Shown here: one piece after another, positions 11,801 to 45,050 of the stretch
Numbering within the stretch: the first letter of the stretch is position 1
Layout of the letters: each line of letters starts with the position of its first letter
Assembly: GCF_016432865.1 (NCBI RefSeq)
Contig: NC_067398.1
Coordinates: 55,490,001-55,554,000 of the forward strand
Direction: 5' to 3'
DNA: 64,000 bases
Origin: Antechinus flavipes
Lineage: Eukaryota
Made by a program: the position numbers and the translations under genes
The notes under the pieces: model-generated
Databases searched by the model: none
Told to the model about the DNA's origin: nothing
Seen by the model: the letters and a program-made list of their open reading frames with translations, nothing else

Positions 11801-14800
11801 TAAAGTTTCTTTTTAGACACTTCAATCCAGCTGATATCTCCATCTGCTGATTCATTTTAGGGCTCCTCTAAAGCATTATGTCTGTAATTTTAAGGACCCA
11901 ATATTCATTAAATGCTGTGCTAGACACTAGGAACCAAAATACACAGAATAAAACCATTCCTACTCTCAAGAAGCAGACGAGTACATATAAAAATAATGCA
12001 GCACAAATATGAAGTGAATAAATACAGATACAAACTAGCTCAATCTAGGATTGTCTGAGATTTCCAACAGCCCAGTTTTGTGGCCCTTCAGTGTTTATAA
12101 CAATTTGACATTCTTATCCATTCTTTGCTTTATAAGCCTTGGCCAAAAGCAACAACACTCTGATCCAACACAGACAGCTGCTTCTAAGAGTCCTGTATCT
12201 CTGGGCCACGATCCACCATCTAGTGTGATCCCGACTCAGCGTTCTTTCCCTTTGGCTCAGTTTGACTTTTGCAAGATTTTCCAGATTTCCCAGGGCTCTT
12301 GAATCCATCCCAGCCTTACTTATTCTTCTCTATTTTTTCTTGCAGCTGTGCGCTAAGTAATGTCAAAAAGGTTTCTCTGGAACTGGGAGGAAAATCTCCC
12401 CTCATCATCTTTGCAGACTGTGATCTGAACAAGGCTGTCCAAATGGTAATTTTACTGATCTTTTATTAATAGGGGTAGATGTGGGTGACCTAGATGGAGC
12501 CCAAAGTGGGAAAGGAAGAGCTCAAGTGAGGCTGTAGGGAAAACAAATGAGGTATGCAAATCCCAAATAAGCTACTGGTGGTGCCATAGTGCACAAAGTA
12601 CAGGACCTGGAGTCAGGACAGTTCATCTTCATGAGTTCAGATTGACCTCAGATATTTACTATGTGACCCTGGACACAGTTTTGGGTCAGTCCACCATGAC
12701 ACTCTGCCTTGTATATCTTTTCCTTCATCCTTTCCCCATGCCTTATGGTATCTCCTTGCCTCAGTTTCTTCATCTGCAAAATGAGCTAGAGAAGGAAATG
12801 GCAAATCACTGCAGTATCTTTGCCAAGAAAACCCCAAATATCACAAAGAGTCAAATACAACTGGAAAATAATTGAAAAACAGCAAATCCCTAGAGAGTTG
12901 GCATTAAGTTTATAGAATGCTAAGCTATAATAATAATACTATTATTAATTATTGTGATTGAGGTACCAACTGATGTGGTTTGTAGACACTAGGTAATATG
13001 AGTTAGGAGAGCACCAAATGTTGGAGTTCAATCATGTGAAGAATTCACAATGACCATTCTCTTTAGTAAAAGGTAAGTTTATTTAAGAGAAAAGGTTACA
13101 GACAAAATGAAGAGGTACAGAAGACACCAGAAATGGTAAATATGAAATAGACTTGGGAGAGTATATAGTTAGTAAAGAAATTTTAGACATTTCAGGGTTA
13201 GAGAAGAGATACCATAAGGCATGGGGAAAGGATGAAGGAAAAGATATACAAGGCAGAGTGTCATGGTGGACTGACCCAAAAGTTCAGCAAGGATGATGTG
13301 AGTCATAGCCATATTTATAGGGGAAATTTAACCTCAGGGATTTGATATAACTTGAATTTCTTGACTAGACACAGCAAGATGGGGCTATCCATTGCTAGGG
13401 GGAGACCTCCACAGAGGGTGAGACTACGAGGCTAAACTGATTCCTATCAATGCCCTTCCCCAAGGAGCAATTCCATCAATGCTTCATTCTTTCTCTGCTA
13501 ACAGTATCCAGGAACTCATTATAACTAATAAATAAATAAATAAATAAAACAATAATATTTATATAGTACTTTAAGTTTTACAAATATTATCTCACTTTAT
13601 CCACACAACAATCCAGGGTGGATGGGTAGATACAACTATTATGCCCATTTTAAGATGAGGAAATCAGAAGATAAATTAATCAGTTTAACGCCTTCATTTT
13701 ATATAGAGAGAAACAAGCCCAGAGAGGAAAAGTAAGTTGCCTTAGATCATTCAGCCATGTAGTGGCCAACCCAGGATTACAGTCCAGCTCACAGAAGCAT
13801 GGATCTTGGAATCAGGGGTCAGTATGGCATGGTAGGAAGAACACTGGATTTTAAGTCAAAGGATCTTAGATCCAAACCATGAGGTCCTAGATCTACAGCT
13901 GGAAGGGATGTCAGAGGAGACTCATTTTACAGATGGGGAAACTAAGGCCCAGAGAGGTCTAAGTGACTTATTTCAGATCCCACAACTAGTTGGCATCAGA
14001 AGCAAAATTTTATCCCAGATCCTCAGACCCTGGAGACACAGTCCTTTCTACTATACTCCATGGGAGTTTGCATTATGACTCCTAAGTTGGTTTCCAACTG
14101 TAGAATCTGTGAATCTGTGGCCTAATTGGACAATCTTGTCTTCTAACATTGCTTTTCATCCATGTTGGCTGCATAAAAGGAGAATGGTGGTGGTGGTGGT
14201 GGTAATAGTTTAAGTTGGTGGGAGGAAACATGTTTAGCGCCTCCCTCACAAAGACCATTCTCTTCTGATCTGCTCTCATTATTGTCCAAACTCGGTCCAA
14301 CATCTGTCTCCAATAATGTTAATCAGCCTGCCTCGCAATTCCTTCGTGGAGAAATGCTTCCTTCCCAAAATGCAGAAAGGAAATGAGATCTCCAGTCCTG
14401 AGTCTTGCTGGGAAATGAAAGTAATAGAATTCTAGAAACTCAGGATTGGAAGAGCCCCCAGAGGTCTAAACCTAACCCTCACCAGCGGAGAGGAGGTTAG
14501 TGCTCCCCTGCATTTGGGAACAGTTACTTTGCATGCCCTATTTTCCTCCATGGGAAATTTCCCAGCCCTCTTTTCTCTACCTCAGTCAATAGAGAAGAGG
14601 AGGGACAAGGAAGGGGCAGCTTCCAGACTTCCCAAGATCCTGTTCTCTGCGTACTTGAGGGAAGAGGAGGAGGGAGCTGAGAAAGCTTTAGTTTGGCTGT
14701 ATTAAAAGTAACAAGTTATACTTCCCCAGCACTACAATGACAACTTTGTAACTCTACAGTTACAAAGTACTTGAATATCCATTTTCTAATTTGATGTTTA

Positions 14801-17800
14801 CTACAGCTCTCTGGGAGGGACATACAAGTGTTGATCCCTATTTTCCTTATGAGAAAACTAAGGTTCAAAGAAATTAATACTTGCCAAAATCACACATCTA
14901 GTAAGTGGTGAAGATAGACTTAATCTCAGTCCTCCTGATGCAAAGTCCAGTGTTCTTTCCACTGATAACAATAAAAATTGGGATAAAGATAAGGCTAGAG
15001 AGTGGATCTGTGCTCTCATTGATATGAGGAATCCCAAGTGAGAAAACTCCAAACCAAAGCAGAGTGGCACTTTCTCTGAGACTTGCAGCTTTATAAAGTT
15101 GCTTAAGGCACTGACAGATGAAGTACTTTTCCCAGAGTCACACAGCCAATATGAGAGACATAGCAGTATCAAAGGAGACATTGAGAGATCAAGCCAAGAA
15201 CAATAATAATAATGGGCATTAATATAGGGTATCCCAAAAGTCTCAGTGCAGTGCTTTTAAATATTGAAGCCTAAAACTGCATCATTTGGAACAGTCTATA
15301 ATGTTTTCTTTAGCTATAACACTTTTTTGTAAGTTTATTTATTTTTAATACATATTACTTTATGAATCATGTTGGGAGAGAAAAACCAGAGCAAAAAGGA
15401 AAAATAATAGGAGAGATTTAAAAACAGAAAAAAGAAGTGAATGTAGCATATGTTGATTTACTTTCACTTTCCTTAGATTTTTTTTGGATGCAGATGGCAT
15501 TTTCTGTCCAAAGTCTATTGGGATTGCTTTGGGTAACTAAAACACTTTATATACTTGTCCCTAACAACCCTGTAGGAGGAGGTAATACAAGTGTTATTAT
15601 TCCCATTTTACAAATGAGGAAATTGAAGCTCAGGGAAATTAAATTACTTGTCTGTAGCCACACAGCTACTAAGCAAACAGACCTAGGAATGTGTGTGTGT
15701 GTGTGTGTAGGTGTATATGTAATATGAATATATATACATATACACACAATATATATAGTGTGTGTGTATACAGAGAGAGAGAAAATAAATCAAGGTTAAG
15801 TGACTTGCCCAGAGTCACACAGCTAATAAGTATTTGAGGTTAGATATGAACTGAGGTCCTCCTGGTTGGTGTTCTATCTACTGTACCACCCAGCTATCCC
15901 TAGAAGCATATATTTAGAACTGAAAGGGGCCTTAGAAGAGACTTTGTCATTTTGCCAGTGAAGTATTATAGCCCAGCATCTTTCCAAGATCACATAGATA
16001 TAACATGGCAGAGCTGGAGGTTTCAAGCTGTAGCCTCTTGTGGTCACTTTTAGCGTATCTTTAAAACAGAAAACTGACTCCTGAAGTTGTCAGAGTGGAA
16101 GAACACTGGCTTTGAGGTCAGCAGATCTGAGTTCAAATCATCCCTCTGTCACTTTGGACAGGTTACTTGAAGAGCTTAGTTCTATTTCTTGTATCAGTAA
16201 AATGGGCGAGGGGGAAGAGTCAGACCATATGAGTCCAAGGTCCCTTCTGGCTTTAAGTCTAGAGTTGTGTGACCACAAAAGGAGGGAACGAGTCAGGGAT
16301 AGCCCCTCATAAAGGCTGCCCTCAGATTTGGGTTTTTGAGCTCTGCCAAGCTCTCCAGCACCCCTCTTCCCTGCAGGATACCTGGTTGCAGCTGCCTCTA
16401 TACCATGATGTTTCATTAAGGTAGTTGGAGGCTCTGGGTAGTACAGAGATTGGGGTGGATTTTTGGTCAGGCACTTGTGGTTAGTTTCCTGTCTGTTATG
16501 GTACCCCTAGGTGTTGGCTAATGTCGGAGACCCAGCTGAAACAGAGTGTGAGCATGTGAATGGAGGTTTTAAGAAAAAGTTAGGGCAAGGGTACTGTTAT
16601 TTCTTAGTCATTTTCAGCCATGCCTGACTCTTTGTGACTCCATTTGGGGTTTTCTTGGCAGAAATGCTAGAGAAGAGTATCATTTCTTTCTCTTGGTTCA
16701 TTTCACACGTGAGGAAACTGAGGCAAACTGGGTTAAGTGACATGCCCATGGTCACACAACTAGTAAGTGTCTGAGGTCAGATTTGAACTCAGTAAGAGGA
16801 GTCTTCCTATCTTCTATTGTACTAACAGCTATTTAAGGTGATCTAAAAACAAAATGTCAATTTAAAAAATAGCAATTATGCCTCTTTACCAACAATGAAG
16901 TGGTTTGTGGGCCCTGGAAAATGGACTCATTGCTTTGATAGAGGGAGGAAGGCAGATAAAGATCATGGGGAAATGCTTTCTCATCTGCCCAGCGATTTAA
17001 TACTTGTTCTTCTGTCCAAAGGGGATGAGTTCTGTTTTCTTCAATAAAGGTGAAAATTGCATCGCAGCAGGACGCCTATTCCTGGAAGATTCAATTCATG
17101 ACCAGTTTGTCCAGAAAGTGGTGAGTTCTGACTCCACCTTTGAAGGTGGACACATTTCATTTGGGATCCTGCCCATGTCCTGGTAACATCCTCCAAGAAG
17201 CCCATCCTGATTTCCAGCCCTGCCCCCACTAACTCCACAAATTTGTGACAGTCTTTCCCTTTCACATAATGCTTAGATGCTTCTCCAGTGCTTTTAATGT
17301 AACACTGTCTATTATAATCACCTTTTTGGAGTATCTCATTACTCACCTACTGGATGATATATCCTTGCAGGATAAAGACAGTGTCGGATCTAATCTACCT
17401 CCTCCAATATTTAAAACAGTGGTTTATTCATAGTAGATGCTTAACAAATAACATTTATTACTGTTAATCAATTGTCCAATAATTTTGAACATTTATTATG
17501 TACAAGGCCCTATGCTAAGCATTGAGCCTGCCCTATTACAGTCTGATGGGAAAAATTTTACCTATTATGTGTGTATATACACATGTCTATTATATACAAA
17601 TATACATTTATACACATAGTGCATCTATGCACACATACAAATACAAAAGTTTGTATACATATAAGTGTGCATATATTTATATATACATATGTATATTTAT
17701 GTAGGGGTGTGTGGTGTAGATAACTGTCATATCAGAAAGTATAGTCAAGTCCCAAATGAGAGTACAGAAGAGCTCACAGAATGGAGAGATCAGGTTAGAA

Positions 17801-43614: not shown

Positions 43615-45050
43615 TTTTTTAAAATAATAGCTTTTTATTTTCAAAACATTTGCAAAGATAGTTTTCAATATTCACCCTTGCAAAACCTTGTGTTCCAATT
43701 TTTTTTCTTGCTTCCTACCTTAGACAACAAGTAATTCAATAAATATTAAACATGTGCAATTTTTCTATATATATTTCCACATTTATTACACTGCACAAGA
43801 AAAGTCAGATCAAAAAGGAAAAAAATGAGAAAGAAAACAAAAAGCAAGCAAACAACAAAAAAGGTGAAAATGCTGTCTTGTGATGCATACTCAGTCCCCA
43901 TAGTCCTCTCTTTGGGTGCAGATGGCTCTCTTCATCACAAGTCTATTAGAACTGGCCTGAACCCTTTCCATAGTGGCAAGAAACTAGAAACTGAGTGGAT
44001 ACCCATCAGTTGGGGAATGCTGTATAAGTTATGGTATAGAAATGTTATGGAATATTATTGTTCTATAAGAAACGACCAGGAAGATGATTTTAAAAGGGCC
44101 TGGAGAGACTTACATGAACTGATGCTGAGTGAAATGAGAAGAGCTAGGAGATCATTGTATACGACAACATCAATATTATACGACAATCAATTCTGATGAA
44201 CATGACTCTTTCCAACAATGAGATGATTGATGCCAGTTCCAATGATCTTGTGATGAAGAGAGCCATCTACACCCAGAGAGAGGACTATGGGAACTGAATG
44301 TGGATCACAACATAAAATTCTCACTCTTTTTGTTGTTATTCATTTGAATTTAGTTTTCTTACTCATTTTCTTTCTTTTTTGATCTGATTTTTCTTGTGCA
44401 GCAAAAAAATTGTATAAATGTTTACACATATTGGATTTAACATATATTTTAATATGTATAACATATATTGGATTGCTTGCCATCTAGGGAAGGGGATGGA
44501 GGGAAGGAGGAAAAAAATCTGAAACACAAGGCAATTTTGAAAAATTATCCATGCATATGTTTTGAAAATAAAAAGCTTTAAAACAAAAGGAATTGTCTTG
44601 AACTTTCTCATTGTTGAAAAGAGCTACATCCATCAGAGTTGATCATAATCTTGTTGTTGCTGTGTATAATGATCTTCTGGTTCTGCTCATTTCACTTAAC
44701 ATCAGTTCATATAAGTCCCTCCAGGCCTCTCTGAAATCATTTTGCTGATGGTTTCTTACAGAACAATAATATTCCATAACATTCACATGCCATAATTTAT
44801 TCAGCCATTCTCCAACTGATGGGCATCCACTCAGTTTCCATTTCTTGCCACTACAAAAAGGGCTGTCATAAACATTTTTGCACATGTGGGTCCCTTTCCC
44901 TCCTTTAAGATTTCTTTGGGATCCAGGTCCACTAGAGACACTGCTGGATCAAAGAGTATGCACAATTTGAAAGCCCTTTGGGCATAGTTCCAAATTGTTC
45001 TCCAGAATAGCTGGATAAGTTTACAATTTTACAACAATGTGTTAGTGTCA
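43615..45050 (-). mobile_element. L1 3' fragment (minus) interrupted by a plus-strand L1 3' end at ~43963-44589
   Basis: Minus-strand L1 3'UTR/ORF2-end on both flanks; plus-strand copy ending in an A-rich tail between degenerate direct repeats at 43949-43962 and 44590-44603. Confidence 0.85.

Follow-up and report, generated by a model that had tools for sequence, protein, structure and literature searches.

Short local duplications left by the repair of broken DNA have been described as a class of their own, the repair-mediated duplications; the defining survey reports, in its main text, 824 of them in human, 295 in introns, with seven identical pairs and one polymorphic case among the ten tested (Pace 2009, PMC2671141). 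The commonest of the breakpoint classes given there (10 of 39) combines a deletion with filler and microhomology and lacks poly(A). Fold-back priming at yeast breaks, followed by displacement and then by end joining, has been reported to give inserts of 10 to >150 bp (Yu et al. 2024, PMC11724301). Here we describe an inverted copy of an LTR segment that lies inside a neighbouring SINE in an intron of ALDH1L1, within a window of 64 kb (C1:55490001-55554000 of a 3.19-Gb assembly; positions without a prefix are those of the window). The 76-bp inverted copy is real, recent and ordinary, and we put at about two in three the probability that it stems from a recent inverted copying of the neighbouring LTR, likely through DNA-break repair in the SINE, and is probably functionless.

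The two arms, 12679-12754 and 13206-13281, were re-derived as exact reverse complements (76/76) across a 451-nt spacer, just as the earlier note had reported, and the match extends at neither end (Table 1). A perfect 76-bp arm pair has a chance expectation of ~10^-36 in 64 kb, and a chance match is therefore excluded. Because the right arm is colinear within the LTR family and the left arm interrupts a SINE, the donor is the copy in the LTR, and the one in the SINE was inserted.

Table 1. Features of the locus and local inverted pairs recovered in the census.
Feature	Position	Strand	Evidence
Coding exon of ALDH1L1 (reference residues 662-694, Glu673 among them)	12346..12445	+	33/33 identity, E 7e-16
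Host intron, 4576 nt, GT...AG	12446..17021	+	Next exon, from 17022, carries a GENC motif
Acceptor SINE, 5' half	12570..12675	+	77-85% identity to numerous genomic copies, whose alignments break off at 12675 or slightly beyond
Junction bases, 3 (either filler or a single added base together with SINE bases left in place)	12676..12678	+	Unlike the donor flank and, in register, unlike sister SINEs
Inserted inverted copy, 76 bp	12679..12754	+	76/76 against 13206-13281; double depth in X1, single in X2-X4
Single extra junction base, repeating the arm's terminal base	12755..12755	+	Comparison with sister SINEs
3' half of the interrupted SINE	12756..12878	+	Shares its first 2 bases with the donor flank (2-nt microhomology)
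Primer-binding-site-like start (13016) with a short remnant of leader	12953..13018	-	Family homology to 13010-13011 in most copies, to 12953-12964 in 2 of 19
Old LTR-like repeat, TG...CA, 485 bp, antisense to the gene	13019..13503	-	Of 3739 candidates, 40 scored; identity of the best other copies 70-88%
Donor segment, predicted R region of the LTR	13206..13281	-	Colinear with family copies at 73-81%; single in X2-X4
Inverted pair	L036:7278-7355/7887-7966		80 bp, 95%, spacer 531
Inverted pair	L044:8724-9134 and L044:9691 to L045:101 (C1:55428724-55430101)		~410 bp, 99%, spacer 556
Inverted pair	L073:1672-1972/3398-3698 (C3:70001672-70003698)		301 bp, 99.7%, spacer 1425
Inverted pair	L086:851-1175/1961-2285		325 bp, 98.5%, spacer 785
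Inverted pair	L125:2618-2681/2914-2977		64 bp, 96.9%, spacer 232

The donor had been described as an integral part of a putative LTR, and its colinearity with other family copies agrees with this. On the minus strand the LTR carries TATAAA starting at 13319, AATAAA at 13083 and the primer-binding-site-like start at 13016; as the latter has ~60 bp of leader behind it, the element is read as a truncated 5' end rather than a clean solo LTR. The copied segment had been placed ~35 nt downstream of the TATAAA and was measured to begin 38 nt past its first T, which is 7 nt inside a transcription start predicted at 13288 from the usual spacing between TATA box and start. Of the 40 matches scored (105 candidates) in a genome-wide search with 70 nt of the arm, the donor and the insert stood at 100% and the remaining 38 at 80-93%, the highest of these being partial alignments. 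This comparison of LTR-family identity, which the earlier note had proposed, led us to reject, among the matches scored, a donor elsewhere in the genome and to regard the template as local. Elsewhere, a 128-bp part of the same LTR family (L002:1331-1458) lies beside a copy in the opposite orientation (L002:1501-1944).

The acceptor SINE, presumably of the Mar1 type as first labelled, is split into halves that are 73-89% identical to sister copies, with homology to the sisters stopping at 12675 and resuming at 12756. Between the equivalents of these two positions, 10 of the 13 sister copies that passed the alignment score filter hold 16 bases (the other three hold 9, 12 and 17). At the locus, 80 bases (3 + 76 + 1) stand in place of ~16 SINE bases, or of ~13 if the bases beside the 5' junction are SINE-derived, close to the 'roughly a dozen' replaced bases of the initial description; these sizes, like those of the filler and the microhomology, are inferred from sister copies and from the related sample X3, not from an empty allele of the same species. 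At the 3' junction, the SINE and the donor flank overlap in 2 exact bases and are alike in 5 of 8; the 5' junction shows likeness in 2 of 8, no more than chance would give. Neither a target-site duplication nor a poly(A)/poly(T) tail of at least 5 was found at the two insert ends, the four T at 12679-12682 belonging to the donor copy and forming no tail. That the arm might be a normal part of the SINE subfamily, a reading on which the original interpretation would have fallen, was rejected: a query of SINE plus arm was spanned end to end by the locus itself and by no other copy among the 40 scored of 717 candidates.

The presence of the insertion was evaluated in four of the 20 runs listed, all from a single study, compared as contigs over 12300-12748, a region that covers the 5' junction; this comparison drops rare variants and filters some records, and the pieces described are among those listed. 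Runs X1 and X2 come from two samples of the same species (organism A), and X3 and X4 from the relatives organism B and organism C, respectively. The X1 contig (12300-12708; depth 29.8) shows 0 differences, X1 being possibly the assembly's own sample, and crosses the 5' junction, running 33 letters past 12675 and 30 past 12678 (one short of the bridging rule at 12678) to a stop that fits entry into a two-copy repeat. Furthermore, the X1 arm piece (12680-12738) has a depth of 59.3, or 2.0 times that of the flank, the value anticipated if each chromosome carries both copies. Arm and flank depths were 23.6 versus 28.4 in X2 (0 differences in 66 arm bases and 5 in 373 flank bases), 16.5 versus 19.8 in X3 and 19.7 versus 19.8 in X4. 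The arm contigs of X2, X3 and X4 run unforked for 80, 74 and 81 letters past 12748; two copies would fork after 6 letters, and each of these samples is therefore taken to hold a single arm copy. In X3, the flank contig leaves the window sequence at 12675 with 24 other letters, which is the empty site that was to be sought in related species, and loose ends at 12675 (4 contigs) read as SINE core. For X2 and X4, where the flank contigs end at 12672, that end was weighed only in combination with the arm contigs.

The insertion is present in X1 and most likely absent from X2-X4; it arose within organism A and carries organism A's donor version. The earlier claim of a recent, locally templated event is upheld by this absence and by the unambiguous donor, and the locus can serve as a presence/absence marker to distinguish populations of organism A. 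In the same runs, the donor segment (compared over 12679-12748) showed 4 differences in 70 bases in X3 and in X4 each, at positions mostly hidden under other LTR copies; flank differences numbered 8 of 376 in X3 and 2 of 373 in X4.

Repair of a break is indicated by an abrupt and exact local match, the loss of ~16 SINE bases, the extra bases, the 2-nt overlap on the 3' side and the lack of poly(A). A germline double-strand break in the SINE would have been followed by resection of the right-hand broken end by >500 nt, after which the minus-strand 3' tail of this end could have found 2 nt to prime on at 13204-13205, through a fold-back or through an SDSA-like invasion of the sister chromatid, with the same product. 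From there, 76 nt would have been copied away from the break, up to 13281, before release of the new strand and its end joining, with filler, to the left side of the break. The right-hand end is the probable primer, since priming from it would leave an inverted copy with its donor on the right; the 2-nt microhomology, split by one extra base, is weak evidence for priming. A template switch at a replication fork (FoSTeS/MMBIR), in which the nascent minus strand stalls in the SINE, copies 76 nt of what it had itself synthesised before and resumes ~16 nt on with no resected break, has the same geometry and product, and the sequence of one locus cannot tell the two apart. Such switches occur in germlines: ~100 calls of at least 25 bp per person, 10-11 of them classical, are reported for human inverted templated insertions with microhomology (PMC8421209), and 4017 short switch events for great apes (PMC7954356). 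We nevertheless consider this origin unlikely, as extra bases at both junctions favour end joining, the 451 nt here fall outside the range surveyed with the 100-bp window of MMBSearch (PMC8421209), and the gold-standard ape tracts are given a median of 12 nt and a maximum of 128 (PMC7954356).

Copying from RNA, which would have a transcript of the LTR promoter running toward the break and reverse-transcribed in cis from the right-hand end to near its own 5' end, appears quite improbable. It draws on the position of the copy end, 38 nt after the TATA box and 7 nt inside the predicted start, a proximity that chance would give to a donor end in ~1-3.5% of cases by a post hoc estimate, and on a polarity that agrees with priming from the right-hand end. 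Break insertions in human cells are reported to favour transcribed donors and RNA:DNA hybrids (bioRxiv 2022.09.30.509517), and class 2 TSIPs have been proposed as RNA patches (PMC5110952). Against this, the LTR is old (70-88% identical to other copies), the copy end lies off the predicted start, poly(A) and a target-site duplication are lacking, and the TSIP donors described are distant whereas the donor here is adjacent. Moreover, four of the five other local inverted pairs found in the census below have no matches beyond the pair, so that DNA templating alone suffices for the class. For the RNA/cDNA capture suggested in the earlier note, the copy does end near the predicted start, but ~7 nt short of it, and poly(A) and a target-site duplication are missing. 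An extended version, namely germline RNA-templated repair in cis from the transcript of an old LTR 600 bases from the break, giving a segregating allele that adds an edited duplex to the ALDH1L1 pre-mRNA, is a shade less credible still. A by-product of LINE-1/SINE retrotransposition, with local DNA captured at SINE integration or by L1 ORF2p, is very improbable: the SINE is old (77-85% to its sisters) and insert-free in X3, which means that the copy came long after it, and bases were lost while neither a poly(A) tail nor a target-site duplication, the features of class 1 (L1-mediated) TSIPs, occurs at the locus. The empty site in X3 largely refutes this origin. An assembly artefact might be suspected from the perfect identity of the arms, from X1 possibly being the assembly's own sample and from a run comparison that reaches the 5' junction only; it is scarcely credible, as an independently built X1 contig spans the 5' junction, the arm stands at 2.0 times the flank depth and a mis-join would not give extra junction bases. 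The concern over short-read misassembly voiced at the outset is in this way met by the X1 contig and its doubled arm depth.

The intronic setting in ALDH1L1 was borne out by translation of the exon at 12346-12445, whose 33 residues are all identical to cytosolic 10-formyltetrahydrofolate dehydrogenase/ALDH1L1 in the PDB (the family member compared); we take Glu673 in this exon to be the catalytic Glu. Both arms share one intron and span 233 to 836 nt past its splice donor site, so that the left arm, put at ~230 nt after the exon in the earlier note, begins 233 nt into the intron. In the pre-mRNA the arms, put forward in the earlier note as a potential ADAR or small-RNA substrate, are predicted to pair with -150.6 kcal/mol and a mean pair probability of 0.998, and they contain 11 and 31 A, the 31 on 13206-13281. 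Long duplexes are generic ADAR substrates, and A-to-I editing of the predicted duplex is plausible. The 76-bp duplex would nonetheless be a by-product of repair and any editing incidental. It brackets no exon, the splice donor 233 nt away is unpaired with it, the acceptor is 3.7 kb off, and its energy ranks 14 among the 46 inverted pairs in the window. A new cryptic 3' splice site from the pyrimidine tract of the arm found no support by a crude count, in which the AG that follows scores 11 pyrimidines in 16 versus 15 and 13 at the two true acceptors; by the same count, 9 AGs of the intron carry at least 12 of 16. Conservation is not seen in so young an allele, which a second sample of the species lacks; the insertion is probably neutral. 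Elsewhere in the window, 43629-44862 holds two overlapping inverted pairs (263 bp at 81% and 358 bp at 72%, spacers <400 nt) with a predicted duplex of ~-313 kcal/mol, stronger than that of the arms.

The frequency of comparable copies was determined in 180 stretches of 10 kb (1.8 Mb), 20 flanking the window and 160 spread over C1-C7, by collecting pairs of at least 40 bases and at least 95% identity; the 12679/13206 pair was recovered as a positive control. Beyond the control, 10 inverted pairs were found in 9 of the 180 stretches. Five of these (L062, L101 twice, L104 and L155) are 90-99% identical to young repeats found in other parts of the sample and were set aside, and some of them may still be local copies. 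L062:2641-3312 and L101:2574-4326 are mosaics in which pieces of young repeats lie in either orientation, possibly complex retrotransposon insertions, with 161 bp at 100% in L062 and many short exact inverted pieces in L101. The other five pairs are given in Table 1. Genome searches with L036, L044/L045 (part searched), L073 and L125 matched only their own two local copies, and L086 matched at 97% locally versus at most 86% elsewhere. Three of the five have longer arms, with exact runs >76 bases. The L044/L045 pair lies ~73 kb upstream of the 76-bp arms and has one arm ending inside a SINE; in L073, unique DNA is inserted, inverted, in the middle of a TTC microsatellite. Clustering near the locus (two of the five pairs in the flanking 200 kb) was not significant (P = 0.10).

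These five pairs in 1.8 Mb correspond to 2.8 per Mb (95% interval 0.9-6.5), and the spread stretches alone, with 3 in 1.6 Mb, to 1.9 per Mb (0.4-5.5), a density that implies thousands of local inverted copies per genome. By the census and the pairs of the window, duplex-forming inverted pairs are common in this genome. Direct orientation accounted for 18 pairs in 13 stretches, of which five have a spacer >50 bp and match nothing else in the sample over their full length (L174:553-1026/2429-2902; L081:2787-3117/4723-5053; L206:7912-8033/9818-9939; L068:1-88/2802-2889; L108:4230-4281/4751-4802); at 52-474 bp, 97.5-100% identity and spacers of 469-2713, they are candidate repair-mediated duplications by this within-sample comparison. 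The values reported for mammals are 0.18-0.65 repair-mediated duplications per Mb of repeat DNA, obtained by a stricter method than ours (PMC2671141). This hints that local duplications are denser here than in the surveyed mammals, although the methods differ and n = 5; were the gap to persist in a like-for-like census, the lineage would be unusually prone to local duplications (about one chance in four). A single locus leaves knowledge of repair unchanged, and this lead from the census matters more.

The locus can be set against each of the described systems in turn. As in the yeast fold-back insertions, the inverted copy comes from the side of one broken end; those reported were joined with 0-5 bp of overlap and primed on a 10-bp inverted repeat across a 41-nt loop, most inserts being 5-34 bp, compared with 2 nt and ~450 nt here (PMC11724301). 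The inverted insertions termed TINS, in which hairpin priming on short microhomology is attributed to polymerase theta, bear a likeness to the locus, but their template typically lies within ~30 bp and their first tract is rarely >10 bp (PMC7165422), whereas here the distance is 451 bp and the 76 bp come in one piece. Polymerase theta, proposed earlier as the maker of the copy, could have made the final join; as the source of the tract it fits poorly on account of these typical distances and lengths. MMBIR insertions (PMC8421209) and short-range switches in apes (PMC7954356) are likewise inverted copies that replace a few bases and derive, in the germline, from DNA close by, in surveys that searched within 100 bp and report mostly short tracts, unlike the 451 bp here. 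Class 2 TSIPs are described, too, as polymorphic break patches with microdeletion, microhomology and added bases, from donors that are distant and proposed to be RNA (PMC5110952), as opposed to the adjacent donor found here.

The closest resemblance is to the repair-mediated duplications, a named class that the earlier note had missed and that the case fits on the evidence of its sequence (PMC2671141). By the definition given in that survey, a transposable element is split by at least 50 bp with its halves within 30 bp of each other in consensus register; here 80 bases split the SINE, and the halves are 16 apart in 10 of 13 sisters. The donor lies >50 bp and <5 kb away on the same chromosome (451 bp here), and a poly(A)/poly(T) tail of at least 5 is lacking, as it is here. 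Breakpoints show a deletion of 1-15 nt, filler of 1-68 nt and/or microhomology of 2-9 nt, and the locus has ~13-16 nt deleted (16 being just above that range), 1-3 + 1 nt extra and a 2-nt overlap. The orthologous site is empty in relatives, as seen here in X3, with single-depth unforked arms in X2 and X4. The sixth feature is a donor filter of at most 2 BLAST hits, which a donor LTR with many relatives would literally fail, although identity, at 100% locally versus 80-93% in the other 38 of 40 scored, sets this donor apart. The published pipeline also drops acceptors that are repeat fragments, and this locus would probably have been filtered out; its copies have a median of 147 bp compared with 76 bp here, and the main text gives no count by orientation. 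Marsupials are absent from the species tables of the survey, and no marsupial case was seen by title or abstract among the papers listed in a literature search. Five of the six features of the class as there described are found at this locus, which offers a clean, datable repair-mediated duplication in a marsupial.
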